Positions 19,971-54,937 of a stretch of DNA of 64,000 nucleotides are shown here, piece by piece. Each line of letters begins with the position of its first letter. Position 1 is the first letter of the stretch. The stretch is from NCBI GenBank assembly GCA_049719955.1, contig JBNARC010000003.1, forward strand, positions 9,953 through 73,952, given 5' to 3'. The stretch comes from Moorellales bacterium (GTDB taxonomy: Bacteria > Bacillota > DSM-521 > Neomoorellales > SLTJ01). The position numbers and the translations under genes are program-made. Below the pieces are notes generated by a model. That model saw only the letters and a list, made by a program, of their open reading frames with translations, made no database searches and was not told the DNA's origin.

Positions 19971-20106
19971 GTTAGGTTAAAGACGGAAGGCGAGGTCCAA
20001 CGCTCTGAACGTCAGCGTACGGGCGGCGGTCCCAAATTGAATCGTAAGAGTTAACCTTCTAGCCTAGGTGGCACGGAAAGCGGCTACAGGGGCAAAGGAG
20101 GGTTTA

Positions 20107-26414: not shown

Positions 26415-26473
26415 GGGAAGGATGGAGTTGGCTCTTGGTGGTGGGCTTGACCAATCAACGAGGAGGTAACGCG

Positions 26474-27580
26474 ATGTCGGCTCTGAGCCTCCTAGCCGTT
26501 GGTGACGTCATTCTGGGGGCCAACGGGGAATGGCTTCTCAGCCTTGCTGCTCCTGTACTTCATGAGGCAGACGTCGTGGTTGGCCAGCTGGAAGTACCCT
26601 ATACCAAGAGAGATCCGGAGGCGTTGGCCCTAGAGCGTGAACCGGATAACTTGGCCGCGCTAGTCTCTTCAGGATTCGACGTGTTGACTCTTGCCAGCAA
26701 CCATCTTTGGGATGCCGGGCGGGCGGGGATAGAGGATACTCTGGCCTGGCTTAGGGCTCACAACCTTGGCTTTGTGGGCGCGGGAATGAATCTCTACGAG
26801 GCAAGACAACCCTGGATCGTGGAACGGAAAGGTACGCGGTTTGGTTTCTTGGCCTATAACTGCGTGGGTCCAAGGGAAACCTGGGCCACGCCTCGCCGTC
26901 CGGGTTGCGCTTACGTGCACATTATCACCCATTACGAATTAGACCATGCCACGCCCGGCGGACCTCCGGCCATTTATACCTGGGCCGAGCCCGCTAGCCT
27001 AGAAAACATGTGTGCGGACATTCGGAACCTGCGTTCATCATGCGATGTATTGGTGGTTTCATTGCACAAAGGCATAGGGCATACGCGTGCCAAGCTCGCT
27101 GCGTATGAATATCAAGTTTCCCATGCGGCCATAGAAGCGGGAGCCGACATCGTCCTAGCGCATCACGCCCATATGCTGAGAGGTGTCGAGGTATATAAGC
27201 AAAAAGCGATCTTCCATGGGCTGGGCAACTTTGCAGTCTTCCTGCCAAGCTCGGCCCTTGGTTCAGATGAGGATCCACAATCTTGGGCCCGGAGAAGAAA
27301 GGAGTTGTTCGGGTTCGAGCCTGATCCAGAATGCCCTACCTACCCGTTCCACCGCGAGGCGAGATATACCATTATCGCGAAATTCCTGGTGAAGGAGGGC
27401 AGGATATTCCGTGCCGGTTTCCTTCCTTGCTTGATCAACAGGTATGGCCAGCCGGTGGTTGTACCGCGAAAGGAGGGAGGCCAAGAGGTTTTTGATTACA
27501 TGGAGGCTATTTCTAGGGAGGCAGGCCTAGATACCAAGTATGGATGGGAAAAAGACGAGATTGTTGTCGGACTCAGGTAG
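26474..27580 (+). CDS. CapA/PGA_cap family metallophosphoesterase-fold protein 1
   Basis: AVGD, GQLE, LASNH, SLHKG, AHHAH, GLGNF motifs; AGGAGG RBS before ATG 26474; no signal peptide. Confidence 0.87.
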   Translation: MSALSLLAVGDVILGANGEWLLSLAAPVLHEADVVVGQLEVPYTKRDPEALALEREPDNLAALVSSGFDVLTLASNHLWDAGRAGIEDTLAWLRAHNLGFVGAGMNLYEARQPWIVERKGTRFGFLAYNCVGPRETWATPRRPGCAYVHIITHYELDHATPGGPPAIYTWAEPASLENMCADIRNLRSSCDVLVVSLHKGIGHTRAKLAAYEYQVSHAAIEAGADIVLAHHAHMLRGVEVYKQKAIFHGLGNFAVFLPSSALGSDEDPQSWARRRKELFGFEPDPECPTYPFHREARYTIIAKFLVKEGRIFRAGFLPCLINRYGQPVVVPRKEGGQEVFDYMEAISREAGLDTKYGWEKDEIVVGLR

Positions 27581-27660: not shown

Positions 27661-28767
27661 ATGCCGCGACGGAAAAATATGCCACGGCGGAAAGCAAGCC
27701 AAATAGTTTCATGGGTACTGCTGCTGGCTGTGGGTCTTCTCTTCTTGGCGGGCGGTTGCGCCAAGTCCGAGACCATTTCGCCGGCACCGGGTGAGCAGCA
27801 GGAACAGCGGCAGCAGCCGCAGCAGGCGCCGATCGAGTTAACGTATGGTTCCATCCAGTCTGCATCTCACCATTATTCCAAGGCAGACCAGGCATGGATC
27901 GATAAGATCCACAAGGAGACCGGGGGGCGCGTCCGCATTACGCCGTATTGGGACGGCACCCTGATCAGCCCGGAAGAAAGTGTAGCCGAGCTCCTCCAAG
28001 GAGTAGCTGACATCGGTTATCTGGCGCCAGGCTACAGTAAAGCGGGCTTTGAAATCCATAAGGGTACCCTAGGATTCTACTACGGTATTCCGGGTTACGA
28101 CGATAGGCTACGAATATACGCAGAAACTACGGCCAAGTTTCCCCAAATTGAAGGAGAGTTTGCTGGGATTAAAATCCTGTGCAGATCCGTAGGGTCGACT
28201 TACCAACTCATCAGCACGAAGCCCGTGAGGGAATTGAAGGACATGCGAGGTTTGAAGATAAAGGGCACAGGCGTATATAACGAGGTAATCAAAGCCTTGG
28301 GAGCAACACCGGTCTCCATGCCCATGACCGAGGTGTACATGGCGCTGGATAAGGGAACCATTGACGCCTGCTTAGCACCCTATGAGACCCTGAAGGGCTT
28401 CAAGTTTGCGGAGGTTGCAAAATATGTTACTGTCTTGAACCTTGCCGGTTCTGTTTATCCGACGCGAGGTATGAACATGAAGAGCTGGGAAAAGCTACCT
28501 CCAGATATTCAGAAGATCTTTGAGGACAATATTGAATTTTGGTCTAACGAAGACAAGAAGTGGAGAGCGGCCGTTGATGATGAAGGGATAGCGTTTGGCA
28601 AGGCACAAGGGGTCGAGTTTATTGAGTTGTCGCCTGCGGATCAGCAGAAATTGGAGGAAGTCGTAGGAAACGTAATGAAAAAAGAGGCGGAAAAGTTGGA
28701 TGCGCTAGGCCTACCCGGAACGGCCATATTCCAAGAGGTCCGCCGCATTGCCGATACGCTGAGGTAG
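27661..28767 (+). CDS. dctP: TRAP transporter substrate-binding lipoprotein DctP (copy 1)
   Basis: Lipobox LAGGC, ETGGRV, LGATPVSMPMTEVYMALDKGTID, WEKLPPDIQK. Confidence 0.9.
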   Translation: MPRRKNMPRRKASQIVSWVLLLAVGLLFLAGGCAKSETISPAPGEQQEQRQQPQQAPIELTYGSIQSASHHYSKADQAWIDKIHKETGGRVRITPYWDGTLISPEESVAELLQGVADIGYLAPGYSKAGFEIHKGTLGFYYGIPGYDDRLRIYAETTAKFPQIEGEFAGIKILCRSVGSTYQLISTKPVRELKDMRGLKIKGTGVYNEVIKALGATPVSMPMTEVYMALDKGTIDACLAPYETLKGFKFAEVAKYVTVLNLAGSVYPTRGMNMKSWEKLPPDIQKIFEDNIEFWSNEDKKWRAAVDDEGIAFGKAQGVEFIELSPADQQKLEEVVGNVMKKEAEKLDALGLPGTAIFQEVRRIADTLR

Positions 28768-28967
28768 CGAGAGGCATTAACGGGTGGGGGGAGGGGGGTG
28801 GGGGCTCTTCTCAGAGGGCTACCCGCCCCCGGTTCCTGCAATTTCTCGTTGCTGCTAGGTACGCGCGAGGGACGCGATTTCTACAAATCAGGGGGACGTT
28901 CTGTCTCGGTCCTTTAGTAAGGCTCGGTCTTGGCGATCAGAACACGCGTAAGGAGGACGGGAGCGGA

Positions 28968-29453
28968 TTGTCACTAATTAAACTGGTTAAGCATGGTGAC
29001 AAAGTAGGAGGGTGGATAGGGCTAGTCTTCATACTGGCAGCGATGGCCGTCACCGTGGTAGCCATTCTATTACGTTTCATTAAGATTGGCTTCCCAGGAA
29101 GCTATGACCTGACCGAGATGTTTACAGTTGCGGCAGTAGGCTTTGCCCTCTTTCGAGCCACACTGGAAAAAGGACATGTTACGATGACGCTACTCGTGGA
29201 ACGCCTGCCACGACGCTTTCAGATAATCTCCGAGAGGTTCGCCTGGCTGGTCACTCTTGGCGTGTGGGCTCTGGTCGCCTGGGCAGCCTTGGACATCGCC
29301 TTGGAGAGAGGGTTGGGTGAGCGCACGGTCGGCGTATCTATCCCCTGCCTTCCGTTTCGGGTTCTTTGGCTATGTGGCCTATTGCTTCTGTGCGTCGCCG
29401 CCTTGGTGAACTTCATTGAGAGTATAAGGGTGAAGGGGGGGCACGACGAGTGA
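28968..29453 (+). CDS. dctQ: TRAP transporter small permease DctQ (copy 1)
   Basis: 4 TM helices, PGSYDLTE, GHVTMTLLVERLP. Confidence 0.88.
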   Translation: MSLIKLVKHGDKVGGWIGLVFILAAMAVTVVAILLRFIKIGFPGSYDLTEMFTVAAVGFALFRATLEKGHVTMTLLVERLPRRFQIISERFAWLVTLGVWALVAWAALDIALERGLGERTVGVSIPCLPFRVLWLCGLLLLCVAALVNFIESIRVKGGHDE

Positions 29454-30751
29454 CCCATATAGCAGCCGCTGTTATTGGCTTGGTGGTGCTGTTTGCCCTG
29501 CTATTTGCGGGCCTCCCCGTTTCTGTGGCTATGTTGCTCGTCGGTCTTGCCGGCCTGTGGGCGCTGATTACACCCAGTGCCGCGATAGCGAAACTCGCGA
29601 TTGCACCTTTCCAGACCGCGTGCAGCTACGACCTGGCGACGTTACCCCTCTTCCTCTTAATGGCGAACGTGCTCAACTATACGGGCCTAGGCCGAGACCT
29701 ATTCAACCTAGCCTACAAGTGGGTGGGCCGCCTGCCTGGCGGCGTCGCCATCACCTCCCTCGTTTCTTGCGGTATGTTCGGCGCCGTTAGCGCCTCCAGT
29801 ATAGCAACGGCTGCGACCATAGGGGCAGTTGCCCTTCCGGAAATGAAGCGGCTGGGCTACCGCAAGAGCCTGGCAGCAGGTGCCGTTGCTGCCGGCGGCA
29901 CTCTGGGTTCACTTATCCCTCCGAGCGGTCTGCTTATCATCTACGGCGTGCTGACCGAGACCTCCATCGGGAAGCTGTTTCTCGCCGCCTGGATGCCGGG
30001 CATCATAGCGGTGGCACTGTACTCGGCTGCTACCTACATCGTCTGTCGGGCTGACCCTAGTGCAGGGCCCCCAGGAGAGGGATCCACATTTAGGGAGAAG
30101 ATTGCGGCGCTCAAGAACGCTATAGAGGTAATATCCATGATGCTCGTGTTGATAGTCGGTCTCCTGGTAGGATGGTTTACGCCCACCGAGGCGGGTGCTA
30201 TTGGAGCCTTCATGGCCATACTGTCGGCGGCAATTCGGAAACGTCTAACCTGGGCGGGATTGAAAGGAGCCATAGACTCTACGTTGCGAAATGCAGGCAT
30301 GGTTTACGGAATCCTAATTGGCGCCAAATTGTTTAACTACTTTCTTGGGAGTACCGGTTTTCCCGGTTGGTTGTCCAAACAGGTTGCCGGCCTGCCCCTT
30401 TCTCCGGTGGGCGTTGTATGGATAATTACAGCAATACTCCTGCTGTTAGGCATTGTTATGGACGAAGGTGCAATGCAGGTATTGACCATACCCATCCTGT
30501 TTCCCGTTATTGTGCACCTCGGCCTTGACCCATTATGGTTCGGAATCCTCACGACCAGGCTTATCCAAATAGGCATGATCAGTCCCCCGTTAGGAATTAC
30601 CATGTTTGTGGTTGGTGGCCTTGATCGGGAACTCTCTATGACCGAAGTCTACCGAGGCGTGATCCCCTTCCTAATTGCGGATGCCGTATTCTTGTTGCTT
30701 CTGGTGTATGTACCCGAGATCGCCTTATTGCTACCGTCCTTGGGCGCTTAA
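29450..30751 (+). CDS. dctM: TRAP transporter large permease DctM (copy 1)
   Basis: LPLFLLM, ALPEMKR, AGGTLGSLIPPS, DPLWFGIL, ISPPLG. Confidence 0.92.
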   Translation: MTHIAAAVIGLVVLFALLFAGLPVSVAMLLVGLAGLWALITPSAAIAKLAIAPFQTACSYDLATLPLFLLMANVLNYTGLGRDLFNLAYKWVGRLPGGVAITSLVSCGMFGAVSASSIATAATIGAVALPEMKRLGYRKSLAAGAVAAGGTLGSLIPPSGLLIIYGVLTETSIGKLFLAAWMPGIIAVALYSAATYIVCRADPSAGPPGEGSTFREKIAALKNAIEVISMMLVLIVGLLVGWFTPTEAGAIGAFMAILSAAIRKRLTWAGLKGAIDSTLRNAGMVYGILIGAKLFNYFLGSTGFPGWLSKQVAGLPLSPVGVVWIITAILLLLGIVMDEGAMQVLTIPILFPVIVHLGLDPLWFGILTTRLIQIGMISPPLGITMFVVGGLDRELSMTEVYRGVIPFLIADAVFLLLLVYVPEIALLLPSLGA

Positions 30752-30966: not shown

Positions 30967-33402
30967 TTGGAGGCCCTGCAGAACCTTAATGGCTCGATTA
31001 GACTTTCAGATAGACATTCGGAAAGGATTGACCGGCTAGTAAGGAGCATTAGGAGGGAACGGTTCCCCCTTTGCATGGAGAAGGCACGCCTTATTACGGA
31101 ATCGTACAGACAGACCGAGGGTGAGCCGGAAATATTGCGGGCAGCGAAAGCATGGGCTCACCTCTTGGAGCGCTTCCCTATTTTTATCCAAGACGATGAA
31201 TGCATAGTGGGAGAGGGAGCTAGTAAGCCCTGGGGTGTAGAACTTGATCCTTTTTTGGGCGTGTGGGACGAGGGCCTAATTCGGGACGCCGAGCGCGACG
31301 GAGTTGTCGAGGTAGCACCGGAGGACTGGGAATTGATACGGGAACTGGGCTCGTACTGGAAAACCAGGTCCGTCGAGTATCAGCGCGGCAAACGCTATAG
31401 CCAGCGCATATGGGAGTTTCTACAACTGGGAGTCACCCTGCCGCCGATGGAGAAAAGAGAGGAGTTTCGCGGGCCCTATGCGGGGAGCGGCCTCTGCCTC
31501 TACTTCAATTTTACCGATGGCAGGTTGGACTACGAAAGATGGCTCGGCGGTTTGAACAATATCCTGCGCGAAATAAGGGAAGAACTGGAGGCTCTAAGAA
31601 TTCTCTCGGTTGCCGACGCCCAGAAGAGGCTGTTCCTTGAGGGGGCGGCAATCGTATTAGAGGCGATTAAGAGGCTTGCGGCCCGGTACGGCGAACTGGC
31701 GGCCAGTATGGCGGCTAGCGAGGAGAACCCTGCCAGGAAGTCGGAGTTACTTAAGATTGCCGAGGCCTGCCGCTGGGTACCGGCCAACCGGCCGCGCAGT
31801 TTCTATGAGGCCATGCAGTCTTTCTGGTTCCTGCAGCTAGTTTCTACTCCTACTTCCACCCAAAACCTGGGCAGGTTCGACCAGTTCATGTATCCCTTCT
31901 ACCGTGCCGACTGGGATAAGGGTGAGCTTTCGGATGAAGATGTCCTGGCCCTGTTATGCGAGTTAAGAGTCAAGTGCATGAGGCCCGAGAACATCAAGAT
32001 TTCTCCCCAAAAACGTATGCAGCACGGCGGCTTCGCCAAATGGCGGGTAATGACTATTGGCGGAGTAACACCCGAGGGGAACGATGCCACCAACGAGCTA
32101 ACCTACTTAGCGCTGGAGGCCGCCTCCCGAGTAAGGACTCCGCACCATACCATCGCCCTAAGGGTACACGAGGGAACGCCAATGGCGTTAATGGTGAAAG
32201 CCCTGGAGGTGGTGCGAACCGGCATTGGCATGCCGGCGTTTGCCTCCGATAGGTCTTATATTGAGTATTTCCTGGCCGCCGGGGTTCCCCTAGAAGAGGC
32301 CCGAAACTATCACATTGTCGGGTGCGTCGATCCCGCCATACCGGGCAAGGTGAGCGCCCTTGCCGGCTATTTCTTCGTTCTGCCTAAGGTTCTTGAGATC
32401 TTCCTTAACGGGGGAGTAGATCCCAGAACCGGGATAGAGTTGTGCCCGTACAAGGTGGATCCCAACTCCTTTACCACCTACGAGGATTTTTTCAAGGCCT
32501 TCAAAGAATACCTGGCGTACTTCATAGCTCTGTGGACCGAGAGTATGTACATTGCGCCCGAAGTGCTTTACTATCACTATTTCGTTGAAAATATGTTGAT
32601 GCACGATAGGATCCAGGTGGGCAAATCGTTTTACGAACATCCGGGAGCATATCCCTACAATTTCTGTGCCCGGATGATACCGGTAGGGATCATGAACGTA
32701 GTGGACTCCCTCGCAGTCGTAAAGAAGCTGATATTCGAAGATAGGAAACTGAGCATGGAGGAATTGATTGAAGCTCTAAAGGCTAACTGGAACGGTTTTG
32801 AGGAAGTACGGAAGATGTGCATGTCTGCGCCTAAGTACGGCAACGACGACGACTACGTAGACGGGATAGCCAAAGAACTTTTCAGGTTCATTGTGGCCGA
32901 AGAGGCAAAGTATCGGGGGGTTAACGGTGCAAGGGTTTGTGGCGTAGGCGGGGCATCTATTACCTCCATGTGGCCTGGAGGAGCGGTTACGGGTGCGACT
33001 CCCGACGGACGCCGGGCGGGCGAAGTAGTAGCTGACGGAACGGTATCTCCGGTCCAGGGGAGAGATAGTAAAGGGCCAACGGCGGTTCTTAAGAGTGCCT
33101 CGAAGATAGATCAGGTGTTGTGTGCCTCGACCTTGTTGAACATGCGTTTCCACCCTTCCGCCCTCAAGAGTGAGGACGATCTTAGGAAGCTGGCCATGCT
33201 CATTAAGACCTATTTCAACATGGGCGGAAAGTGGATTCAGTTTAACGTAGTCAGCCGAGAAACCCTGCTTGACGCGCAGCAGAATCCCGAGAAATACCAA
33301 GACCTAGTGGTGAGAGTGGCAGGGTATAGCGCCTATTTTGTTCAGTTAGGTAAAGCCCTTCAGGATGACATCATAGCGCGCACGGAGCACGACCTCCGAT
33401 AA
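30967..33402 (+). CDS. Glycyl radical enzyme 1 (PFL-like family, unassigned subclass)
   Basis: 811 aa; GRFDQ, Cys loop HIVGCVDP, PKYGNDDD, GATPDGR, Gly loop VVRVAGYSAYF. Confidence 0.93.
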   Translation: MEALQNLNGSIRLSDRHSERIDRLVRSIRRERFPLCMEKARLITESYRQTEGEPEILRAAKAWAHLLERFPIFIQDDECIVGEGASKPWGVELDPFLGVWDEGLIRDAERDGVVEVAPEDWELIRELGSYWKTRSVEYQRGKRYSQRIWEFLQLGVTLPPMEKREEFRGPYAGSGLCLYFNFTDGRLDYERWLGGLNNILREIREELEALRILSVADAQKRLFLEGAAIVLEAIKRLAARYGELAASMAASEENPARKSELLKIAEACRWVPANRPRSFYEAMQSFWFLQLVSTPTSTQNLGRFDQFMYPFYRADWDKGELSDEDVLALLCELRVKCMRPENIKISPQKRMQHGGFAKWRVMTIGGVTPEGNDATNELTYLALEAASRVRTPHHTIALRVHEGTPMALMVKALEVVRTGIGMPAFASDRSYIEYFLAAGVPLEEARNYHIVGCVDPAIPGKVSALAGYFFVLPKVLEIFLNGGVDPRTGIELCPYKVDPNSFTTYEDFFKAFKEYLAYFIALWTESMYIAPEVLYYHYFVENMLMHDRIQVGKSFYEHPGAYPYNFCARMIPVGIMNVVDSLAVVKKLIFEDRKLSMEELIEALKANWNGFEEVRKMCMSAPKYGNDDDYVDGIAKELFRFIVAEEAKYRGVNGARVCGVGGASITSMWPGGAVTGATPDGRRAGEVVADGTVSPVQGRDSKGPTAVLKSASKIDQVLCASTLLNMRFHPSALKSEDDLRKLAMLIKTYFNMGGKWIQFNVVSRETLLDAQQNPEKYQDLVVRVAGYSAYFVQLGKALQDDIIARTEHDLR

Positions 33403-33513: not shown

Positions 33514-34635
33514 TTGCAAGGGAAAGTAATCCTGCTGGCAGTTGGGGATATTGGGCCGGAGCGTGAAGATCCTTCAACGATATTTGATTGCGTAAGGGGC
33601 TATCTGCAAGGCGCCGACGTTGTCTTTGGCCAACTGGAGGCCGTTCTTTCGCATCGAGGTAGCCAGCTACCACAGGCGCGGCTGGCCTGCCGGGCCCAGC
33701 CTGCGGTAGCCAGGGCGCTGAGGGAGGCCGGCTTCACGGTTATATCCTTTGCGAGCAATCACTGCATGGACTTGGGACGTGAAGCTTTCTTCGATACCAT
33801 AGACGCCCTCCAAGAGCAGGGGCTGGCAGTAGTGGGGGTCGGCGCCAACATTGAGGAGGCCCGCAAGCCTGCATTCATCGAACGAAAGGGTACGCGCCTG
33901 GCGTTTCTCGCCTATAATTCAATCCTGCCGTACGGTTACTGGGCGCAGACCGATCGCCCCGGCTGCGTCCCTCTTAGGGCTCATACGTATTATGAGCAGA
34001 TCGAGCACGACCAGCCCGGTACCCCCTGCCGCGTGCATACCTTTGCCCACCGGGGGGACCTGGAGGCTATGGTAAGAGATATTGAAGCGGCCAAGCGGAA
34101 CGCAGACCTGGTCATAGTATCAATCCACTGGGGGATCCATTTCATACCCGCGGTCATTGCCGACTACCAGCGGGAGATTGCCCGCGTGGCCATCGATCAC
34201 GGTGCCGATCTGATTTTGGGCCACCATGCGCATATACTCAAGGGGATAGAGGTCTACGCCGGCAAGGCGATATTTTACAGTCTCTGCAACTTCGCCCTGG
34301 AGCTGCGCGCTACTCCGGAGCTTCTTCAAAGTCCACGGCATAAGGAGATCGAGGTACTCAACCCGGATTGGGTACCGGACCCGGAGTACCCTACGTATTT
34401 CCTGCCGCGCGATTCCCGAAAGACGGCGGTAGCGAAGTGCGTGATCGACGAAGGCCGCATCGCCGCGGTATCGTTCCTCCCGGCGTACATTAACCCCCAG
34501 GCTCAGCCGGAGATCTTAAGCTCCGAAGACCCGCGTTTTGGAGAAGTATTGGAATACATGCGCCGAATCACTGCGGATCAGGGCCTAAACGCGACATTCC
34601 GGGTTGAAGGTGACGAAGTCGTTATCAAGGGGTGA
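33514..34635 (+). CDS. CapA/PGA_cap family metallophosphoesterase-fold protein 2
   Basis: AVGD, GQLE, FASNH, SIHWG, GHHAH, YSLCNF; clear paralogue of 26474-27580. Confidence 0.87.
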   Translation: MQGKVILLAVGDIGPEREDPSTIFDCVRGYLQGADVVFGQLEAVLSHRGSQLPQARLACRAQPAVARALREAGFTVISFASNHCMDLGREAFFDTIDALQEQGLAVVGVGANIEEARKPAFIERKGTRLAFLAYNSILPYGYWAQTDRPGCVPLRAHTYYEQIEHDQPGTPCRVHTFAHRGDLEAMVRDIEAAKRNADLVIVSIHWGIHFIPAVIADYQREIARVAIDHGADLILGHHAHILKGIEVYAGKAIFYSLCNFALELRATPELLQSPRHKEIEVLNPDWVPDPEYPTYFLPRDSRKTAVAKCVIDEGRIAAVSFLPAYINPQAQPEILSSEDPRFGEVLEYMRRITADQGLNATFRVEGDEVVIKG

Positions 34636-36023
34636 AGGACGTGGCGTCCGTGAACGCCTCGCGGGCGATAGCCGAGCATGTTTCCTCCGTCCGCTTCGAG
34701 GATCTTCCGGCGGAGGCGGTAGAGGCTGCCAAGAAGTCCATCTTGGATAGCGTGGGTGTCATCCTGGCAGCCTCTACACTTGGAGAAGGGTGTCGCCCAT
34801 TCGTAGAATTAGCTCTGGAGGCCGGGGGCAAGAAGGAGAGCACCATAATGGGATTTGCCGCCAAGGCGCCCTCCTTCATGGCCGCCTTTGCCAACGGTTC
34901 GATGGCTCATGCTCTAGATTATGAAGACACTCATGACGTTGCCCTGGTTCATCCCAGCGCCGCCACCGTACCGGCAGCCCTGGCAGTTGCCGAGGCGGTA
35001 GGCGGGGTATCCGGTAAGGCACTGTTGGCGGCGGTGGCGGTGGGGAACGACCTGGTATGTCGGCTGGGTCTGGCGGCAAGGGTAGATTCCCGAGAATACG
35101 GATGGTACATGCCTCCCATTCTCGGTGCCTTCGGGGCCGGCGCGGCCGCCGCCTATCTCCTCGGACTTAGTGCGGATAAGGTCCTGGCGGCCCTTTCCCT
35201 AATCCTCTGCCAGGCCACGTGCAGTGCCGAGTTGGTACACAGCCCCAACTCGGACGTAAGAGCGGTGCGGGATGCGTTTTCCGCTAAGGCCGGGGTGCTG
35301 GCGGCGTTGCTGGCCGATAGAGGTGTAAGGGGGTTTGAACGGCCCATTGACGGGGAGGCCGGGCTGTTCGCTTCGTTCTTTCGCGGTCAGTATGATTGCG
35401 AGGTACTTCTTGAGGGATTGGGCCAGGTGTTCGAGGGGGCAAAAGTAAGCTTCAAGCCGTGGCCCAGTTGCCGGGGCACTCACGGTTATATACAGGCCAT
35501 GCTGGAATTACGGGAGGAATACGGACTATCCCCTCAGGACGTAGAAGAGATCAAGCTAACTGTCAGTCCTCTAAATCGAGTGCTATGCGAGCCGCTAGAA
35601 GCGAAGCAGCGACCGACGAACGCCATTGGCGCCAAGTTCAGTTTGCCCTTTACTGTCGGAACCGCGCTGGTCCACGGGCGAGTGGGGCTGGAGCATTTCT
35701 CGTTTGCAGCCTTGGCGGACGAAGAGGTGCTCGCGGTCGCCGCCAAAGTAAGTTTCCAAGTGGATCACTCCCTGGGTGTTGGCGAGTCCACGAGAGGATG
35801 TTTGGAGGTTCGGGCAAAGGGACAGCGGTTTCTCAAGGAGATAGAACGCCCTTACGGGCACCCCGAGCGCCCGATGAAGTTGTCGGACGTAGCGGCAAAG
35901 TTCAAGGCGTGTGCGAAATATGCGTTAGAACCCGTATCGCCAGCGGCAGCCTCTGAGTTTGCCGAGTCAGTTTTAGATCTTGAAAGGGTAGAAGACGTGC
36001 GAACAGTTATGAACTTGCTTTGA
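34632..36023 (+). CDS. MmgE/PrpD family protein
   Basis: AFANGSMAHALDYEDTH...HPSA, FKPWPSCRGTH, AKFSLPF, PYGHPERP. Confidence 0.9.
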   Translation: MKDVASVNASRAIAEHVSSVRFEDLPAEAVEAAKKSILDSVGVILAASTLGEGCRPFVELALEAGGKKESTIMGFAAKAPSFMAAFANGSMAHALDYEDTHDVALVHPSAATVPAALAVAEAVGGVSGKALLAAVAVGNDLVCRLGLAARVDSREYGWYMPPILGAFGAGAAAAYLLGLSADKVLAALSLILCQATCSAELVHSPNSDVRAVRDAFSAKAGVLAALLADRGVRGFERPIDGEAGLFASFFRGQYDCEVLLEGLGQVFEGAKVSFKPWPSCRGTHGYIQAMLELREEYGLSPQDVEEIKLTVSPLNRVLCEPLEAKQRPTNAIGAKFSLPFTVGTALVHGRVGLEHFSFAALADEEVLAVAAKVSFQVDHSLGVGESTRGCLEVRAKGQRFLKEIERPYGHPERPMKLSDVAAKFKACAKYALEPVSPAAASEFAESVLDLERVEDVRTVMNLL

Positions 36024-36209: not shown

Positions 36210-37316
36210 ATGAGACTATCGGTCAAATGGGTAGTGATAGCTCTGCTGCTAGTGGCAGTCTTAGCCCTGGGGCTGGTGGGCGGATGCGCGAAATCGGAAC
36301 AGGGCACCGCAAGCACTCAAGGCTCGGAGGGCGCTGCTCAACCGGCCACGCCATCCCCTTCCACCCAAACCATTGTCCTAAAGTTTGCGGCTACCTACTC
36401 GCCGAACCATCCCCAAGCTATTGCTGACCAAGCGTGGTTCGAAAAAATCGAAAAGGAAACCGGAGGGAGGGTAAAGTTCGAACCCGTCTGGGGAGGAGCC
36501 TTGATGAAGGCCGACCAGGCCTTCATCGAGTTGGCCAACGGAGTTGCCGATGTCTCCGAGTTCTCCGGTGCCTACGTAAAGGAAGGCTTTGATATTGAAA
36601 AGGCAATGCGGGTGCTCTTCTGCAACGTACCTGATCGCGAGGTAGCGCGGCGTATATACCATGAGCTTCGGGCAAAGTACCCGCAGATCGACGCTGAGTT
36701 CTCGAAAATCAAGGTGTTAGCCTACCATGCTATCACGCCTTACCAAGTAGCTACAGTGAAGAAACCCATAAGAAAGGTAGGAGATTTCAAGGGGCTAATG
36801 CTAAAGGTCTCCGGCGATCACCTGAAAATAGCCCAAGCCTTGGGCGCTGATGCTTCGCCAATCCCAATGTCGGAAACGTACGTGGCACTGCAAAAGGGAA
36901 CCATTGACGGTGCCATGGTCCCGTACGAAACCTTGAAATCGTTCCGCTTCGGAGAGGTAGTGAAGTACGTCACCGAATTGAATATGGCTACCGGTCCCAC
37001 TCCGCACAGAGGAATGAACCTTAATACATGGAACAAGCTGCCACCGGATATTCAGAAGGTATTCGAAGACAACATTGAGTGGTACGGGAGGAAGATCGAG
37101 GAAGAATTATTCAAGGCAGACGCTAGCGGTATCGACTTTGCGAAGCAGCAAGGAGTAGAATTCATCAAACTCTCAGACGAAGAACTGAAGAAGTATCGCA
37201 ACGTCGTTGACAAAGTCATTCAAGAACAGGCTAAAGCCCTTGACACGAAGGGTCTACCTGGAACCCAGATTTATGAGGACATAAAACGGCTCAGCGATCA
37301 ATACCTAAAGAAATAA
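36210..37316 (+). CDS. dctP: TRAP transporter substrate-binding lipoprotein DctP (copy 2)
   Basis: Lipobox LVGGC, ETGGRVKF, PMSETYVALQKGTIDG, WNKLPPDIQK. Confidence 0.9.
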   Translation: MRLSVKWVVIALLLVAVLALGLVGGCAKSEQGTASTQGSEGAAQPATPSPSTQTIVLKFAATYSPNHPQAIADQAWFEKIEKETGGRVKFEPVWGGALMKADQAFIELANGVADVSEFSGAYVKEGFDIEKAMRVLFCNVPDREVARRIYHELRAKYPQIDAEFSKIKVLAYHAITPYQVATVKKPIRKVGDFKGLMLKVSGDHLKIAQALGADASPIPMSETYVALQKGTIDGAMVPYETLKSFRFGEVVKYVTELNMATGPTPHRGMNLNTWNKLPPDIQKVFEDNIEWYGRKIEEELFKADASGIDFAKQQGVEFIKLSDEELKKYRNVVDKVIQEQAKALDTKGLPGTQIYEDIKRLSDQYLKK

Positions 37317-37488
37317 CCCGGTAAATGGTCCATCCTCCCGGTGTGCGCGGGAAACGTGTGCAGACGCAAAGCAACGATTATTGCGCTTGGAGCTGCTCGG
37401 CTCACGTTCCCGCGCTACCTCCTCGTTTTATGGCGGGGGAATGCACCCGGTACGGGCCAAAGGGCGGTTGAGGAGGTAAAAAGATTTC

Positions 37489-37968
37489 ATGCTCAAGCTT
37501 ATCCGAACTCTTGACAGATTTGGTGCCGCCGTGGGGGGAATTTTTCTAATAGCAATGGTGGTCCTTACGGTAGTAACTGTTCTGTCTAGGCTTAGCGGGG
37601 TCGCCATGCCGGGCAGCTACGAGTTACTGGTTCTACTTGTTGTTATTCCTGTCGGTTTCGCGCTTTTTGGAAGTACCTGGGCAAAGAGACATGTGGTTAT
37701 TGAATCTTTGGTAGAGCACCTGCCCCAACGGGCGCGGGCTGTCCTTGACCGGTGGGCGTGGGCGGTCAGCCTACTCTGGTGGATTCTAACCGCTTGGGCA
37801 GCTTTCGACATCACCCTAGATAAGGGTCTACAAGAACGCACTGAGGTCCTTAACCTTCCTTTTCTACCCTTCCGCCTAGTTTGGATTTTCGGCCTAACAC
37901 TTGTCTGTATTGCCTCGTTGCTACACCTGTTAAAGGTAAGAGAAAGGGAGGGGGATACTAGTCAATGA
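37489..37968 (+). CDS. dctQ: TRAP transporter small permease DctQ (copy 2)
   Basis: 4 TM helices, PGSYEL, RHVVIESLVEHLP. Confidence 0.88.
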   Translation: MLKLIRTLDRFGAAVGGIFLIAMVVLTVVTVLSRLSGVAMPGSYELLVLLVVIPVGFALFGSTWAKRHVVIESLVEHLPQRARAVLDRWAWAVSLLWWILTAWAAFDITLDKGLQERTEVLNLPFLPFRLVWIFGLTLVCIASLLHLLKVREREGDTSQ

Positions 37969-39266
37969 GTTCCATAGCGGTAGCAACTGTCGGGCTTGTT
38001 GCGATGTTTGCTTTGCTGCTGACCGGTGTTCCGGTCGGTGTAGCTATGGGCGTAGTGGGGCTTTTTGGGCTTTGGGCTGCAGTTTCCGAGAGCGCAGCTA
38101 TAATCAAATTGGCAGTGGTACCCTTTCAGACAATAACCAGCTACGATTTGGCAAGCCTCCCCCTATTCCTTTTTATGGCCAATGTTTTTAATTATTCCGG
38201 TATGGGACGGGACCTGTTTAATCTGGCCTACAAATGGCTAGGACGTCTTCCCGGTGGTGTAGGGCTAGCGGCTATTGCAGCGTGCGGGGGTTTCTCCGCC
38301 ATAAGTGCTTCCAGCATCGCCACGGCCGCGACTGTAGGGGCAGTAGCTCTCCCCGAGATGAAGCGCTTTAAGTACGACGATCGGCTGGCCACGGGCTGCA
38401 TCGCCGCTGGTGGTACTATCGGCACTCTTATACCGCCAAGCGGCATCTTGATCATTTACGGGATACTGACGGAAACCTCTATCGGAAAGTTGTTTCTCGC
38501 CGGCTGGATACCGGGTATGTTGGTAGTCATACTCTATGCAGCAGTGATTTTCATTATTTGCCGATTCGCTCCTGCGCTCGGGCCCCGGGGAGAGACGTCC
38601 ACGCTTCGCGAGAGGTTTCTTGCTCTCAAAGGCTGCATAGAGGTAATAGGGGTGATGCTATTCCTACTTATTGGCCTACTGGTAGGGTGGTTCACAGCCA
38701 CCGAGGCAGGGGCCGTCGGTTCCGCGGCCGCTATCATCTCCTCCTTATTCAGGAAAAAACTCACCTGGGAAGGGTTCACCAAGGCTATATGGTCTAGCTT
38801 ACGCACCTCTGGTATGATCTATGGTATCCTTATTGGCGCATTCATGTTTAATTACTTCTTGGCGTCTACTGGGTTTCCCACTTTTCTCTCTCAAACCATA
38901 ACCCACCTGAACTTGTCGCCTCTAGGTGTCATAGGAATGATCATACTGATATTCTTGATCCTTGGAACTCTGTTGGATGAGGCGGCGATGCATGTGCTTA
39001 CTATACCCATCTTCTTCCCTGTCATCCAGCATTTAGGGATAAACCCGATATGGTTCGGTATACTTACCACTAGGCTCGTAGAAGTAGCCATGATTAGTCC
39101 GCCTTTAGGCGTAACAATGTTCGTAGTTAAAGGACTTCAGCCAGAGGTACCCATGGCAAGAATATACCAGGGCGTGATACCTTTCCTGATTGCGGATGCG
39201 GTTTCTCTGCTACTCCTCGTGTTTATTCCAGAACTGGCGTTGTTCTTGCCGAACCTTGCCCGGTGA
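37965..39266 (+). CDS. dctM: TRAP transporter large permease DctM (copy 2)
   Basis: 433 aa, same length and motifs as copy 1 (AGGTIGTLIPPS, NPIWFGIL, ISPPLG). Confidence 0.92.
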   Translation: MSSIAVATVGLVAMFALLLTGVPVGVAMGVVGLFGLWAAVSESAAIIKLAVVPFQTITSYDLASLPLFLFMANVFNYSGMGRDLFNLAYKWLGRLPGGVGLAAIAACGGFSAISASSIATAATVGAVALPEMKRFKYDDRLATGCIAAGGTIGTLIPPSGILIIYGILTETSIGKLFLAGWIPGMLVVILYAAVIFIICRFAPALGPRGETSTLRERFLALKGCIEVIGVMLFLLIGLLVGWFTATEAGAVGSAAAIISSLFRKKLTWEGFTKAIWSSLRTSGMIYGILIGAFMFNYFLASTGFPTFLSQTITHLNLSPLGVIGMIILIFLILGTLLDEAAMHVLTIPIFFPVIQHLGINPIWFGILTTRLVEVAMISPPLGVTMFVVKGLQPEVPMARIYQGVIPFLIADAVSLLLLVFIPELALFLPNLAR

Positions 39267-39331: not shown

Positions 39332-40528
39332 ATGGGCAAGAGGCCGGCAAGAGAACCGATATGGACCAGGGACTTCTGCTTAGTATGCTTTTCTTCTTTT
39401 TTGATCCATATTTCCATGCACATGCTCATGCCCGTGCTACCCGGTTACGTTCGGTCTTGGGGAGTAGGGGAAGGGTTGGCAGGCGCGGTGACCGGCGCAT
39501 TTGCCATTTCTGCACTTGCTACCCGTCCCGTAACGGGCCGCGAACTAGACAGGCGCGAGAGGAGGCCGGTTTACTTAACCGGACTGGCGCTGTTCGTGGT
39601 AGCCGCCTTCGCCTACCCCTGGGCATACAACCCCGGATCGGTACTCGGGACCCGGGTACTCCAGGGGTGTGGCTTCGGAATAGTATCCACCGCGGCAGGT
39701 ACCATCATAACCGACCTTCTCCCCCCCAAACGTCGAGGAGAGGGAATGGGATACTTCGGCCTCTTCAACAGCATTAGCACGGCTGTGGCGCCTGCCACCG
39801 GAATCTATCTGGCGTCTAACCTGGGTTACTACTGCCTATTTTATGCGGCCGCTGCCCTGGCGGTGGCGGCATTGTTGTTGGCCGCGGGCCTGTCACGCGG
39901 ACAGGTTGTATCTCACAGAACAGAAACCTATTCCAGGTTGGCCATCTTTGAGCCGGGGGCGGCTCCTGCCTCCCTGGTTGCCCTGTTTGTATCGGTGGCG
40001 TATAGCTCGGTTGTTACTTTCATCCAGATATATGCGAGCATGAGAGGGATTGCCAATGTTGGGGTCTTCTTTACTGTTTATGCTACTGTTATGATAGCTA
40101 TTCGATCAATATGCGGTCGCATTTACGATCTTTGGGGACCGACTCCGGTGGTAGCTCCCGGACTGGTTTTGATGGCAGGCTCCCTAACGCTGATCGCCCA
40201 TGCCTCGGGGCTAAAGGCACTCATCGTTGCTGCGGTTTTGCTTGGGCTGGGATTTGGGGCGGCTCAGCCCTCCCTGCAAGCCCTGGCAGTAGCCAAAGTT
40301 CCGCCTACGCGGCGTGGGGCGGCAAACGCCAACTTCTACTCCGCCCTCGATATAGGCCTGGGCGGCGGGTCTGTGCTCTTTGGCTTGGTGGCCGAGATGG
40401 TGGGCTACCCTTCAATGTACCAGACGGCCGCAACGGTGCCTCTGGGGGGTATAGGGGTCTACTTGCTTATGATACGTTTCTGGCGTAATACTGAGGACCC
40501 GAAAAACATGACCGTGGAGGTGAAGTAG
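39332..40528 (+). CDS. MFS transporter
   Basis: ~12 hydrophobic segments, GRELDRRERR motif A variant, RVLQGCGFG, PPKRRGEGMG. Confidence 0.88.
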   Translation: MGKRPAREPIWTRDFCLVCFSSFLIHISMHMLMPVLPGYVRSWGVGEGLAGAVTGAFAISALATRPVTGRELDRRERRPVYLTGLALFVVAAFAYPWAYNPGSVLGTRVLQGCGFGIVSTAAGTIITDLLPPKRRGEGMGYFGLFNSISTAVAPATGIYLASNLGYYCLFYAAAALAVAALLLAAGLSRGQVVSHRTETYSRLAIFEPGAAPASLVALFVSVAYSSVVTFIQIYASMRGIANVGVFFTVYATVMIAIRSICGRIYDLWGPTPVVAPGLVLMAGSLTLIAHASGLKALIVAAVLLGLGFGAAQPSLQALAVAKVPPTRRGAANANFYSALDIGLGGGSVLFGLVAEMVGYPSMYQTAATVPLGGIGVYLLMIRFWRNTEDPKNMTVEVK

Positions 40529-40529: not shown

Positions 40530-42926
40530 GTGAACGAAAGGGTGCGGCGACTCAAGGAGAGGCTTGCGGTAGAGGAATACCCGATCTGCACTGAGAAAGT
40601 AAGGCTGGTCCTGGAATCGTTTAGGCAGACCGAGGGCGAGCCGGAGATAGTGCGAAGGGCGAAGGCCACAGCCTACTATCTCGATCATAAGACCATATTC
40701 ATTGAGGACGACGAACTTATAGTTGGGAATGTGGCGAGCAAGCCCATGGGCTTGGAGGCGGGGACGACCGGTCCCACGTGGCCGAAGGAGGACCTGGAGG
40801 AGCTCAAACAGCAGGGCATTACCATCTCCGAGGAAGACGAGGCCTTTCTGAGATCGGTGGAGGGTTACTGGAAGGGTCGTACCTTTTGGGAAAGGCAGGC
40901 GGAGTATTACGACGACGAGCGTCTGTGGCCTTTCATACAGTCGGGGGTCCTCATACCGCCGTGGAAGTCTAAAAGCGAAGGTCGGGGCCACGGATCCGCC
41001 GGCGTAGGATGGGGGCTTGGCAATGGGCTAAGCCTCATAGTGGTAGATTTCGCCAAGGTACTGTACGAGGGCCTGAACCGGATTATTGAAGACGCCGAAC
41101 GTGAACTAAGGGAACTCAGGTTTATGAGTGCGGAGGCGCTCAAGAAGGCCGACTTCCTTCGGTCGGTCATCATCGCCGATTCAGCGATCATCCGCCTAGC
41201 CCACCGATTTGCCGACCTGGCGGCGGACATGGCAACCAGGGAGCCCAGTCCCAGGCGTCGGGAAGAACTGGAGCGGATAGCCGAGGCCTGCCGCTGGGTT
41301 CCGGCCAACCCGGCACGCACTTTTTACGAAGCGATCCAGTCCTTCTGGTTCATTTGGATGATGATTGCCTCAGGCACCGCCGCCGCTGGCCGCTTCGACC
41401 AATACATGTACCCGTTCTACAAGAGGGATAAGGAAGAGGGCAGGATCACCGACGAGGAAGTCCTGGAGCTTTTGGAGTGCCTGCGCATCAAAATCATGCA
41501 GTTCAACCTGGTGGGAGGGGTGAGCGGAGGCGGCCGGGACCAACGCCGCAAATGGTCAGGGCTGGCCCGGTGGAACAATTTCGTAGTCGGTGGTGTAACG
41601 CCCGAGGGGGCGGATGCTACTAATGAATTGTCTTACCTTATCTTGGAAGCGACCAAGGATTGCCCCACTCCTCACCCCACCATAACCGTAAGGGTGCACG
41701 AGAAGACACCCGAAGACTTTATATTGAAGGCGCTGGAAGTCGTCAAGGCCGGCATAGGTATGCCGGCCTTCATCAGCGACAAGTCCTACATTGACTATCT
41801 GGTCAGCCAGGGCGTACCGCTGGAAGAGGCCCGCGACTACGCGCTGGGCGGCTGCCTGGACGTGAACCTTCCCGGCAAATCGCGAATCAACGCCTTCGGC
41901 ATGTTCAACGCGCCCAAAGTACTGGAGATTACCATAAACAATGGGGTTGATCCCCGGACCGGTCGGCAACTCGGTTTGAAAACCGGCGAGTTTGAAAGCT
42001 TTCAGACTTTCGACGAGTTCATGGAGGCGTTTAAGAGGCAGCTCGCTCATTTCATGAGCCTGTTGGCGGAGGAGCACAACATCTCCCTGGTGGTCCAGGC
42101 CCAGCTTTATCCCGACCCGGTGCACTCTTCGCTAATGGCGGACGCCATAAAGGTAGGTAAGGATGTCAACGAACGCACCATGCCGTTCGAGAACGGGTCG
42201 GTAATGAACGTGGTAGGGATGATAAATGTCGCTGATTCCCTGGCCGCAATCAAGAAATTGGTTTTTGAGGAGAGGAAGGTGGGCGCGAGCGAGCTGAAGG
42301 AGGCATTAGCGGCGAACTGGGAGGGTTACGAAGAGATCCGTAGGCAGTGCCTAGCCGCACCCAAGTACGGTAACGGTGATGAATTCGTGGACGAGATCGC
42401 CGCCGACCTGTACCAGTTTTGGGCGGAACAGGCTACTTCTTACCCCACCGCGCTTGGAGGTACTCACAAGCCTTCGGCCATCTCCATAACCGCGCACGGC
42501 CCAGGCGGCGCCATAGTCGGAGCTACTCCTGACGGGCGGTATGCTGGCGAGACCCTGGCGGACGGAAGCATGTCTCCGGCGCAGGGCCGGGACACCCGGG
42601 GGCCCACGGCGGTGCTCCGCAGCGCTATGAGGATTAAGCAAACTCTTTACCAGGCAACGCTCCTCAATATGAAGTTCCACCCCTCCGCTTTGAAGACCAC
42701 GGAAGACTTAAGAAAGCTTTCGGCGCTCATACGCACCTACTTCGCCTACGGGGGCAAGCACGTGCAGTTTAACGTGGTAGATAAGGTGACCTTGCTCGAG
42801 GCCCAGAGGCATCCGGAAAAGTATCGGGATCTGATCGTTAGGGTGGCCGGGTACAGTGCCTATTTTGTGCAGTTAGACAAGAAGATTCAGGACGAGATTA
42901 TCGCCCGCACCGAGCACGGCTTATGA
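40530..42926 (+). CDS. Glycyl radical enzyme 2 (PFL-like family, unassigned subclass)
   Basis: 798 aa; GRFDQ, Cys loop YALGGCLDV, PKYGNGD, GATPDGR, Gly loop IVRVAGYSAYF. Confidence 0.93.
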   Translation: MNERVRRLKERLAVEEYPICTEKVRLVLESFRQTEGEPEIVRRAKATAYYLDHKTIFIEDDELIVGNVASKPMGLEAGTTGPTWPKEDLEELKQQGITISEEDEAFLRSVEGYWKGRTFWERQAEYYDDERLWPFIQSGVLIPPWKSKSEGRGHGSAGVGWGLGNGLSLIVVDFAKVLYEGLNRIIEDAERELRELRFMSAEALKKADFLRSVIIADSAIIRLAHRFADLAADMATREPSPRRREELERIAEACRWVPANPARTFYEAIQSFWFIWMMIASGTAAAGRFDQYMYPFYKRDKEEGRITDEEVLELLECLRIKIMQFNLVGGVSGGGRDQRRKWSGLARWNNFVVGGVTPEGADATNELSYLILEATKDCPTPHPTITVRVHEKTPEDFILKALEVVKAGIGMPAFISDKSYIDYLVSQGVPLEEARDYALGGCLDVNLPGKSRINAFGMFNAPKVLEITINNGVDPRTGRQLGLKTGEFESFQTFDEFMEAFKRQLAHFMSLLAEEHNISLVVQAQLYPDPVHSSLMADAIKVGKDVNERTMPFENGSVMNVVGMINVADSLAAIKKLVFEERKVGASELKEALAANWEGYEEIRRQCLAAPKYGNGDEFVDEIAADLYQFWAEQATSYPTALGGTHKPSAISITAHGPGGAIVGATPDGRYAGETLADGSMSPAQGRDTRGPTAVLRSAMRIKQTLYQATLLNMKFHPSALKTTEDLRKLSALIRTYFAYGGKHVQFNVVDKVTLLEAQRHPEKYRDLIVRVAGYSAYFVQLDKKIQDEIIARTEHGL

Positions 42927-44046: not shown

Positions 44047-44220
44047 CAGAAGGGAACGAACAACCCGGCGGCGAACTCACCCGTACAAGATTGGGCTGGA
44101 CCGCGCCGCCCGAAGGAGGTTGGGGGCCGACCCATGCTGGCGCGTGCTTACGGAGTAACTCTCTTAGGGTTAGAAGCCCACCTGGTGGAAGTGGAAGTTG
44201 ACGTCGGCCCCGGCTTGCCC
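44047..44220 (+). repeat. Right copy (attR-like) of the 174-bp direct repeat, supplying the start of intact comM
   Basis: Aligns to 17535-17708; 44167-44220 identical to 17655-17708. Confidence 0.95.
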
Positions 44221-45669: not shown

Positions 45670-45674
45670 CCGGT

Positions 45675-47612: not shown

Positions 47613-47774
47613 TCTCCTTGCCACCTCCACCGCTCTCCATTTCTACATCCGTCCGTGTATATAGACGCGGTGGTTTGGCGACCGGTTCCAACGCCTTTTA
47701 TTCCCCCGTCATCGCCGGTCTCTGGAAGAAAAGGGCGCAGAAACTCTGCCGGATCGCATGGGCCCCGACGGATT

Positions 47775-47783
47775 TGGTATAAT
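47775..47783 (+). promoter_or_regulatory. Extended -10 element (TGgTATAAT)
   Basis: Perfect TGnTATAAT 23 bp upstream of the ATG at 47807. Confidence 0.55.
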
Positions 47784-47806
47784 TTGAAGTAAGTGGGGGG
47801 CCAACC

Positions 47807-48589: not shown

Positions 48590-48610
48590 GGCCAAAAGGA
48601 GGGCCGAAGC

Positions 48611-49813: not shown

Positions 49814-49867
49814 CCTGGCAGGGCAGCTCGATATCCATATCACTTTGAGAGAGGGAGGTTGTTAGAG

Positions 49868-50326: not shown

Positions 50327-50380
50327 AAACTTCTTTGTCACCTGACCCTGCCAGGTATCAGGAAATGGGGGCCGGCACCT

Positions 50381-51490: not shown

Positions 51491-51501
51491 GGTGAGGAAG
51501 G

Positions 51502-54865: not shown

Positions 54866-54896
54866 TCTTGTCAGAACATTAGTGATGTGCTAGTAT
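54866..54896 (+). promoter_or_regulatory. Putative sigma-A promoter of xerC-hslVU-codY with overlapping CodY-box-like site
   Basis: TTGTCA-17 bp-(TGc)TAGTAT; TCTTGTCAGAACATT matches AATTTTCWGAAAATT at 11/15. Confidence 0.55.
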
Positions 54897-54937
54897 AAAC
54901 CGAAAGACCTTGGGTAATACTCTGGGGAGGGGAAATC

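Follow-up and report, generated by a model that had tools for sequence, protein, structure and literature searches.

The subject of this work is GRE2, a glycyl radical enzyme (GRE) encoded in a 64,000-nucleotide stretch, here called the window, of contig JBNARC010000003.1 from a Moorellales bacterium (assembly GCA_049719955.1). GREs are the main anaerobic route to hard C-C, C-O, C-N and C-S cleavages. The open reading frame (ORF) of GRE2 runs through 798 codons without interruption, and its GTG start is supported because a GGAGGTG Shine-Dalgarno sequence lies upstream and homologues span 100% of the protein, with a consensus that begins MNER. Both of its Pfam domains, PFL-like PF02901 (617 bits) and Gly_radical PF01228 (114 bits), are complete. 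The stretch GGCGGCTGCCTGGACGT, which encodes the Cys loop GGCLDV, is the sole hit when the window is scanned with a degenerate form of this motif (0/100 in shuffles), and Cys442 of the loop aligns with C433 of GDH and with the loop cysteines of CutC, PD, IseG and HPAD (4-hydroxyphenylacetate decarboxylase). GRE2 also has YALGGCLDVNLPG, MIASGTAAAGRFDQ (residues 278-291) and GLARWNN (344-350). A sequence-only reading of this DNA had pointed out the loop, a small-residue stretch and an A(K/R)W motif shared with a second GRE of the window, GRE1 (GLARWNN versus GFAKWRV), and we found all of them in the two translations. The same reading had placed no HpdC-like gene between GRE2 and the activase 50 nt downstream of its stop codon, which proved correct: no free-standing Cys-rich small ORF occurs between 30 and 46 kb, where any ORF of 30-160 aa containing four or more Cys has an overlap of 43% or more with an annotated gene. 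The activase reaches 370 bits against TIGR02494 (cut-off 174) and is the only one of the gene island to which GRE2 belongs. With barrel, radical domain, catalytic Cys and activase in place, GRE2 is, judged from its sequence, a member of the PFL-like division of the GRE superfamily and probably a functional single-subunit enzyme; at this level all the parts that GRE catalysis requires are there. The coordinates of the features are collected in Table 1.

Our results show that GRE2 belongs to a branch of GREs in which an Asp stands at the position of the CXE glutamate. We aligned 161 GREs, namely the database matches listed for GRE2, GRE1, and the GREs read from fetched loci. At least 120 matches were listed, at 68-100% identity (one is the window's own protein), and all have a C-[LI]-D loop; their sources are bins of Chloroflexota, Thermodesulfobacteriota, Bacillota and spirochaetes as well as numerous metagenomes, and the closest homologues among the matches listed are 68-75% identical at 100% coverage. 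The loop reads C-[LIV]-D in 146 of the 161 aligned proteins and C-V-Y, C-V-E, C-M-S or C-A-E in the other 15. Asp444 is invariant in 146/146 clade members, down to 48% identity. Positions conserved at 97% or more in these 146 number 111, and 32 of them are rare in the 15 others, including Glu76, Trp84, Pro143, Pro144, Gly160, Arg319, Arg339, Ala346, Trp348, Tyr420, Asp444, Glu514, Ser652, Gln704 and Lys743; a Trp at position 348 is present throughout the clade and in 0/15 outgroup sequences. The clade also has a Pro/Gly-rich insertion of its own directly before strand β1, seen as a 16-residue gap on the GDH side of the alignment; P143, P144 and G160 are invariant in it, the outgroup is mostly gapped there, and residues 120-162 of GRE2 match no PDB chain at E<=10. 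We define the C-x-D clade by the C-[LIV]-D loop, PPW plus the Gly-rich insertion, invariant Arg339, Ala346, Trp348 and Ser652, and monophyly, all of which hold for GRE2, and we consider the identity of GRE2 and its membership of this clade very probable.

Two trees were computed. In the first, with 68 rows and every sixth database match taken, the clade (47 rows) has a support of 100 in the Shimodaira-Hasegawa-like approximate likelihood-ratio test (SH-aLRT). In the second, with 54 rows, six database matches were kept, near-duplicate locus rows were dropped and GDH-like and C-L-G/C-L-A proteins were added; the clade, now of 28 rows, keeps its SH-aLRT of 100 and has a branch length of 0.40, and the GDH-like, PD-like and CutC rows group together apart from it. 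HPAD is an outgroup branch in both trees; with respect to IslA, HypD, IAD, PhdB and AAD, which are absent from them, the clade was placed by hidden Markov model (HMM) and PDB scores. Within the clade we distinguish a GRE1 type (GC[LV]DPAIPGK), a GRE2 type (GCLD[VL]N[LI]PGKS) and at least one further type (TGC[LV]D[GA]N). GRE1, with GFAKWRV and GCVD, falls into a subclade of 4 rows (SH-aLRT 100) inside the C-x-D clade and is 50% identical to GRE2, and thus the two are divergent paralogues of one CxD clade, as had been proposed from the sequence. In a sample of 401 genomes of the same phylum, scored on the two best candidates from each genome, six match GRE2 at E<=1e-180, and the five besides the genome of the window itself carry CVE or CLE loops; no such match occurs in the closest sampled relative, a genome of the window's family (G372). 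GDH-like proteins of this sample are 44-46% identical to GRE2. A related GRE pair is present in the cultured Geosporobacter ferrireducens IRF9 (L003).

Other groups of GREs were seen on the way. Five loci (L012, L013, L014, L016 and L051, match at about 9800-12270 in each) from Thermodesulfobacteriota-type bins hold a separate GRE clade with a C-V-Y loop, GCVY[LI]ELPGKN, which has no loop acid; these proteins are 37-38% identical to GRE2. The genome of the window has a third GRE (L058:8355-10901, contig C5 of G000), of 848 aa, with a C-L-A Cys loop, which fails all equivalogs. The genes around it (L058:713-12075) encode a separate activase, the third TRAP system, a flavoprotein (OYE+Pyr_redox_2) and MutL (PF13941), and the enzyme groups with C-L-G GREs of three other loci (L019, L022, L023) with SH-aLRT 100. 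The C-L-A/C-L-G GREs look like another uncharacterised clade.

Table 1. Features of GRE2, its activase and the surrounding gene island; positions are those of the window.
Feature	Position	Strand	Basis
GRE2, 798-aa glycyl radical enzyme of the C-x-D clade	40530..42926	+	Pfam PFL-like and Gly_radical; all NCBIfam equivalogs below cut-off
Clade-specific Pro/Gly-rich insertion, residues 142-160, IPPWKSKSEGRGHGSAGVG, directly before strand β1	40953..41009	+	alignment gap
A-R-W, residues 346-348	41565..41573	+	Ala346 and Trp348 clade-invariant
Cys loop GGCLDV: catalytic Cys442, Asp444 at the CXE glutamate position	41847..41864	+	pattern match, alignment to GDH C433/E435
Glycyl radical motif RVAGYS, residues 771-776, Gly774	42840..42857	+	translation, position, Gly_radical domain
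Activase: GRE-activating radical SAM enzyme, 310 aa	42977..43909	+	TIGR02494, Radical_SAM and ferredoxin-type cluster motifs
GRE1, paralogue with GC-V-D loop, GRE1-type subclade	30967..33402	+	50% identity to GRE2
GAF/PucR-type regulator, head of island	20068..22398	+	Pfam GAF_2, GGDEF_2, HTH_30
Fused HGD-D 2-hydroxyacyl-CoA-dehydratase-like protein	22732..25224	+	Pfam
Family III CoA-transferase	25188..26414	+	Pfam
PGA_cap protein 1	26411..27580	+	Pfam
TRAP transporter 1 (DctP 27661-28767, DctQ, DctM)	27661..30751	+	Pfam
PGA_cap (CapA/MslH-like) protein 2	33514..34635	+	Pfam, 223 bits
MmgE/PrpD-family protein	34632..36023	+	Pfam; best PDB match iminodisuccinate epimerase, 132 bits
TRAP transporter 2 (DctP 36210-37316, DctQ 37489-37968, DctM 37965-39266)	36210..39266	+	Pfam
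MFS transporter	39332..40528	+	MFS_1, 163 bits; stop 1 nt before GRE2 start

None of the NCBIfam equivalogs tested was reached by GRE2, by GRE1 or by four further clade members of other organisms; as a positive control, the CutC of L017 passes the CutC model at 1340.5. For GRE2 the best equivalog by score is the HpsG (DHPS enzyme) model NF048011, with 620.3 against a cut-off of 1000, and the other scores were 559.9 for HypD (NF043068, cut-off 1100), 553 for IAD (1100), 545.8 for CutC (TIGR04394, 1050), 466.8 for HpfG (NF048009, 1000) and 442.3 for HPAD (NF033715, 1150), where the best stretch covers only residues 207-597; the PFL2-3 subfamily model TIGR01774 gave 630.6 with a cut-off of 678.2. 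The best PDB matches are GDH (558 bits), CutC and PD (512 each), IseG (479), AAD (446) and HPAD (313), and the ESM Atlas returned generic GRE clusters only. The CXE loop, shared mark of the GRE 1,2-eliminases and isomerases (GD, PD, CutC, HypD, IslA, HpsG, HpfG, HplG, YbiW and PflD), is replaced by C-L-D in GRE2. In the sections of a June 2026 review that we consulted, all GRE eliminases and isomerases keep CXE and no CXD class is named (PMC13450708), and, as far as an excerpt of another paper goes, CXQ is found in PhdB and CXS in PflB and BssA (PMC7079210). A literature search for a CXD or Asp Cys loop in GREs found none, the supplementary tables of sequence similarity networks, which could list such a cluster, being outside its scope. 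We conclude that the C-x-D clade is a distinct, biochemically uncharacterised and widespread branch of GREs, which bears out the earlier view of it; it is large, deeply split into paralogue types, and its invariant change of the catalytic loop is seen in no reviewed class.

It could be argued that GRE2 belongs to a known class, be it HPAD, CutC, HypD, a sulfonate lyase or one of the glycerol and propanediol dehydratases, and that its loop Asp is a conservative replacement of Glu. The replacement is indeed conservative, HpsG is the best equivalog, and TRAP transporters also accompany sulfonate GREs, according to parts of two reports (PMC6453916, PMC11668362). We nevertheless find this explanation very hard to sustain: the equivalog cut-offs are all missed widely and that of TIGR01774 is missed too, with the same outcome in the four other clade members, the clade stands apart from the GDH-like, PD-like, CutC and HPAD rows, and no small subunit is present. 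Moreover, the residues that define these classes are not conserved. Equivalences were mapped by hand from printed alignments, with residue roles taken in part from the review. By this mapping, GDH His164 and IslA Gln193 both correspond to Leu169 of GRE2, IslA Arg189 to Asn165, GDH Ser282 to Thr283, the active-site Tyr339 of GDH to Trp348, Glu435 to Asp444, Asp447 to Ala455 and Tyr640 to Ile651, while GDH His281 is deleted; the residues that handle the leaving group in diol dehydratases, CutC and sulfonate lyases are replaced in the GRE1/GRE2 clade. Individually, we rejected HPAD (on its model score, GGCLD instead of GGCLE, the missing small subunit gene and 35% identity), a diol dehydratase (catalytic His and Asp absent), a sulfonate lyase of the IslA/HpsG type (Arg + Gln sulfonate clamp absent) and an X-succinate synthase (those found have C-M-S loops and lie on a separate branch).

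GRE2 and its activase close a co-directional island, whose order is PucR-type regulator, fused HGD-D protein, family III CoA-transferase, PGA_cap 1, TRAP 1, GRE1, PGA_cap 2, PrpD, TRAP 2, MFS transporter, GRE2 and activase. The two PGA_cap genes are the only ones of the genome and their products are 40% identical to each other; the PDB matches obtained are MslH epimerase entries only (106 bits for PGA_cap 2), and genes for poly-gamma-glutamate synthetase were not seen next to them. With the lasso-peptide epimerase MslH as sole PDB kin, this suggests a catabolic epimerase or racemase role for the PGA_cap family here. The binding proteins DctP1 and DctP2 are 43% identical and both have 4n6d as best PDB match. 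The second and third matches of DctP1 are 4pgn/4pgp and 4nap, which we take to hold indole compounds. In one paper, 4NAP is described as binding a D-amino acid (PMC10443332).

Some features of the island and its borders were noted separately. The HGD-D protein (830 aa) consists of two fused HGD-D halves of the 2-hydroxyacyl-CoA dehydratase/benzoyl-CoA reductase type, and its gene overlaps the start of the CoA-transferase gene. There is no activator ATPase near it; four BcrAD_BadFG ATPases, which could activate the HGD-D protein, are on other contigs. Just upstream of the regulator, at 18180-19667, lies an OAD_beta gene (oxaloacetate/glutaconyl-CoA decarboxylase β-subunit, 483 bits). A hydrophobic ORF of 52 aa comes after it; genes for the α and biotin-carrier subunits were not seen in its vicinity. 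The flanks (1-16000 and 44134-56400 of the window) contain housekeeping genes in an order typical of Bacillota, with smc, ftsY, ffh, rimM, trmD, lepB and rnhB on one side and comM-like, dprA and onward on the other, and G+C is slightly lower in the island (20-44 kb), at 0.556 versus 0.592.

The setting recurs elsewhere. We compared 21 sources, the window and 20 loci with a clade GRE; many of these loci are short, so that counts of absence are weak. Two or three clade paralogues are present in 13/21 sources, and one activase, never more, in 14/21. A GRE2-type gene followed by a GRE1-type gene and PGA_cap is found in L001, L031 and L032, and PGA_cap follows GRE1-type genes in L010 and L031. GRE1-type, PGA_cap, PrpD and TRAP genes occur together again in L010, PGA_cap and PrpD stand beside a GRE pair in L030, PrpD lies next to clade GREs in L006, L008, L010 and L030, and related TRAP systems do so in L010, L011 and L035. 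MatC/CitMHS-type carriers are near clade GREs in L003, L004, L006, L008 and L009, and a DASS carrier was also seen; the MFS transporter is not kept beside GRE2-type genes in other loci. A PucR-type HTH protein adjoins the three GREs of L004. HGD-D and CoA-transferase are found in L005, and CoA-transferase and PGA_cap in L003. Further neighbours are family I/III CoA-transferases, an enoyl-CoA hydratase/3-hydroxyacyl-CoA dehydrogenase fusion, thiolase, acyl-CoA dehydrogenase with ETF, an AMP-forming ligase and peptide/opine-type binding proteins, the CoA genes being present in only some loci. A literature search for a GRE linked with PrpD found none. In one groundwater Chloroflexi bin (L002:12316-14688), two cytochrome P450 genes, a URO-D-family gene and peptide-type ABC transporter genes are beside a clade GRE pair; P450 genes are odd company for an oxygen-sensitive enzyme.

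What reaction might GRE2 catalyse? Its substrate is probably an imported organic acid, since carboxylate carriers (TRAP, MatC/CitMHS, DASS) adjoin the clade GREs. We tentatively favour radical elimination or isomerisation of a hydroxy- or amino-carboxylate, with Asp444 as putative acid/base. In this scheme the activase would install the radical on Gly774, from where it would move in turnover to Cys442, which would attack the imported acid. Asp444 would act as acid/base on the heteroatom, like the Glu in HypD, CutC or HplG, the adjacent C-O or C-N bond would break, and return of the hydrogen from Cys442 would give an oxo-acid or an isomer, which could pass to the CoA-transferase of the island and to β-oxidation-type enzymes. 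The PGA_cap (MslH-like) and PrpD (iminodisuccinate (IDS)-epimerase-like) proteins may interconvert stereoisomers, and the paralogous GREs may each take different isomers or congeners. At the predicted pocket positions of strand β1, GRE2 has Trp/Leu/Asn/Leu/Leu and GRE1 has Leu/Leu/Phe/Phe/Asp, so the two differ at most of these positions, which fits different substrates. We favour elimination or isomerisation because the overall similarity of GRE2 is closer to eliminases, because its activase is nearer to eliminase activases (the nearest equivalog is the HypD activase, 368 with a cut-off of 425, then HpsG activase with 342, versus 263 for the HPAD activase), because the reviewed eliminases and isomerases all need a loop acid while decarboxylases vary, and because paralogue sets together with epimerases recall the hydroxyproline-isomer enzymes. 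An acid is retained at the GRE2 loop, so the working principle of the eliminases may still hold.

Several observations pull the other way. Where known eliminases have residues that activate the leaving group, GRE2 has non-polar or changed ones (Leu169, Ala455, Asn165 and Ile651, with H281 deleted). The pocket, whose facing residues were predicted from strand parity, appears mostly hydrophobic (Trp161, Leu163, Leu167, Leu169, Trp348, Ile651 and Ile653) and would suit an arylacetate-type decarboxylase at least equally. In the Cys-loop region (residues 380-520) the decarboxylase AAD is marginally the best PDB match, with 114.1 bits versus 113 for GDH. Finally, the island has no aldehyde/alcohol dehydrogenase or microcompartment genes, and its other members may belong to separate pathways.

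These observations lead to the alternative of a single-subunit radical decarboxylase comparable to AAD, IAD or HPAD. GRE2 would then release CO2 from an imported carboxylate that bears a hydrophobic or radical-stabilising group, and Asp444 would protonate the Cys442 thiolate (in a Kolbe-type mechanism) or the product carbon. The loop YALGGCLDVNLPGK locally resembles those of HPAD (GGCLETS) and AAD (YAIGGCVLHQVPGK), the polar leaving-group helpers of eliminases are absent, and the carriers point to carboxylates as substrates. AAD and IAD work without a small subunit, as stated in parts of two articles (PMC13450708, PMC13598205). The ligands of the DctP1 matches described above would also suit this alternative, and the Fld/Had-like CoA-transferase, HGD-D and acyl-CoA dehydrogenase/ETF neighbours may recall amino-acid fermentation, a known setting of GRE decarboxylases. 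Overall similarity and activase type are nevertheless nearer to eliminases, and the HPAD and IAD models score far below their cut-offs. Known GRE decarboxylases yield dead-end volatile products and are not known to be surrounded by CoA/β-oxidation sets and epimerases. The loop acid, moreover, is strictly invariant across deep paralogues, unlike the residue of the decarboxylases, which is Glu in HPAD and IAD, Gln in PhdB (PMC7079210, seen in excerpt) and Leu in AAD. On balance we regard decarboxylation as a close rival, only somewhat less likely than the elimination or isomerisation that we favour.

The insertion and the CoA-related neighbours bear on another proposal, a reaction type new to GREs. 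This could be chemistry on an acyl-CoA thioester supplied by the neighbouring CoA-transferases, as a radical alternative to the ATP-activated 2-hydroxyacyl-CoA dehydratases, a B12-independent rearrangement of a dicarboxylate skeleton, or fumarate-addition-like C-C chemistry without small subunits. The insertion, EGRGxGAAGVGWGLG, lies next to β1, has no counterpart in solved GREs and could be an anion/phosphate hole; family III/I CoA-transferases, the AMP-forming ligase and HGD-D genes recur near clade GREs, and so do dicarboxylate-type carriers. However, the proposal is purely contextual and without precedent, the CoA genes accompany only some of the GREs, and the X-succinate synthase-like GREs differ in loop and branch, as noted above. 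We regard it as improbable.

Returning to the clade as a whole, it is real and widespread, with an altered catalytic loop and an unusual set of accessory genes. More speculatively, and with no great confidence, we propose that the C-x-D enzymes could form a new functional class of GREs, acting on stereoisomeric amino- or hydroxy-(di)carboxylates or their CoA esters in partnership with cofactor-independent epimerases like MslH/PGA_cap and IDS-epimerase/PrpD. The reaction would be one unassigned to any GRE, and the insertion would be an anion-binding element. Such a reaction might, for instance, break a C-N or C-O bond of an amino- or hydroxy-dicarboxylate by a radical route, decarboxylate a non-aryl acid, or bypass ATP-dependent 2-hydroxyacyl-CoA dehydration through radical chemistry. 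At the level of abstracts, a literature search showed no GRE assigned to sulfolactate, tartrate, malonate, 2-hydroxyglutarate or L-carnitine. Candidate substrates considered for GRE2 were tartrate, sulfolactate, 2-hydroxyglutarate, carnitine-like compounds and aromatic 2-hydroxy acids. Newly assigned GRE clades have each opened a new pathway, as with choline, hydroxyproline, isethionate and anhydro-sugars. The island offers a first catabolic setting for MslH-like PGA_cap proteins, and the window provides a compact, testable set of two GREs, one activase and two binding proteins.

How does GRE2 compare with the systems already known? The sequence-only reading had called its loop HPAD-like, with Asp and no small subunit, on the premise that HPAD has GGCLE and needs a small Fe-S subunit. 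This premise was right, because in the 401 genomes, searched with NF033715, six have an HPAD above the cut-off (1511-1658 bits), the loop is GGCLETS in 5/5 large subunits in which it was read (in the sixth, L055, it lies outside the search window), and an ORF of 86-92 aa with 7-9 Cys directly follows the large subunit in 6/6 loci. The label itself does not hold, since the likeness is limited to the local motif G-G-C-L-acid, along with a likely carboxylate substrate. Unlike HPAD, GRE2 can be aligned at 35% identity over 684 residues only, with its first 170 residues unaligned, it lacks the insertions after the Cys loop and near residue 597, it is about 100 residues shorter, and no gene for a small Cys-rich subunit accompanies it. 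Beside this comparison we note that the relative G372 encodes an 883-aa near-HPAD GRE (G372:C8:3828-6428) with 1117.7 bits, below the cut-off of 1150.

AAD of Olsenella scatoligenes (PDB 7e7l) resembles GRE2 in being a single subunit of about 800 aa without an insertion after the loop. Unlike GRE2, it has a GGC-V-L loop, with Leu at the position of the invariant Asp, and over the full length it is a poorer match than GDH.

The B12-independent 1,2-eliminases GDH (PDB 1r8w) and PD (5i2a) are the best overall PDB matches of GRE2, nearly full length, and share with it the length class, the single subunit, the acid two residues past the catalytic Cys and the type of activase. GRE2 differs from GDH in the pocket residues mapped above, and from both enzymes in the insertion before β1, the sub-cut-off TIGR01774 score, the separate branch and the lack of microcompartment or aldehyde-handling genes.

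The HypD group offers the closest parallel to the scheme that we favour. HypD, HplG, HpyG and HpzG set a precedent, according to the review: these paralogous GREs take the stereoisomers of a single substrate that bears a carboxylate, and their loop acid acts on the hydroxyl that leaves (PMC13450708). GRE2 is unlike this group in its score against the HypD model and in having CXD instead of CXE, and the putative epimerases of the island are of other families (PGA_cap and PrpD); like the HypD system, the island has an activase that is nearest to that of HypD.

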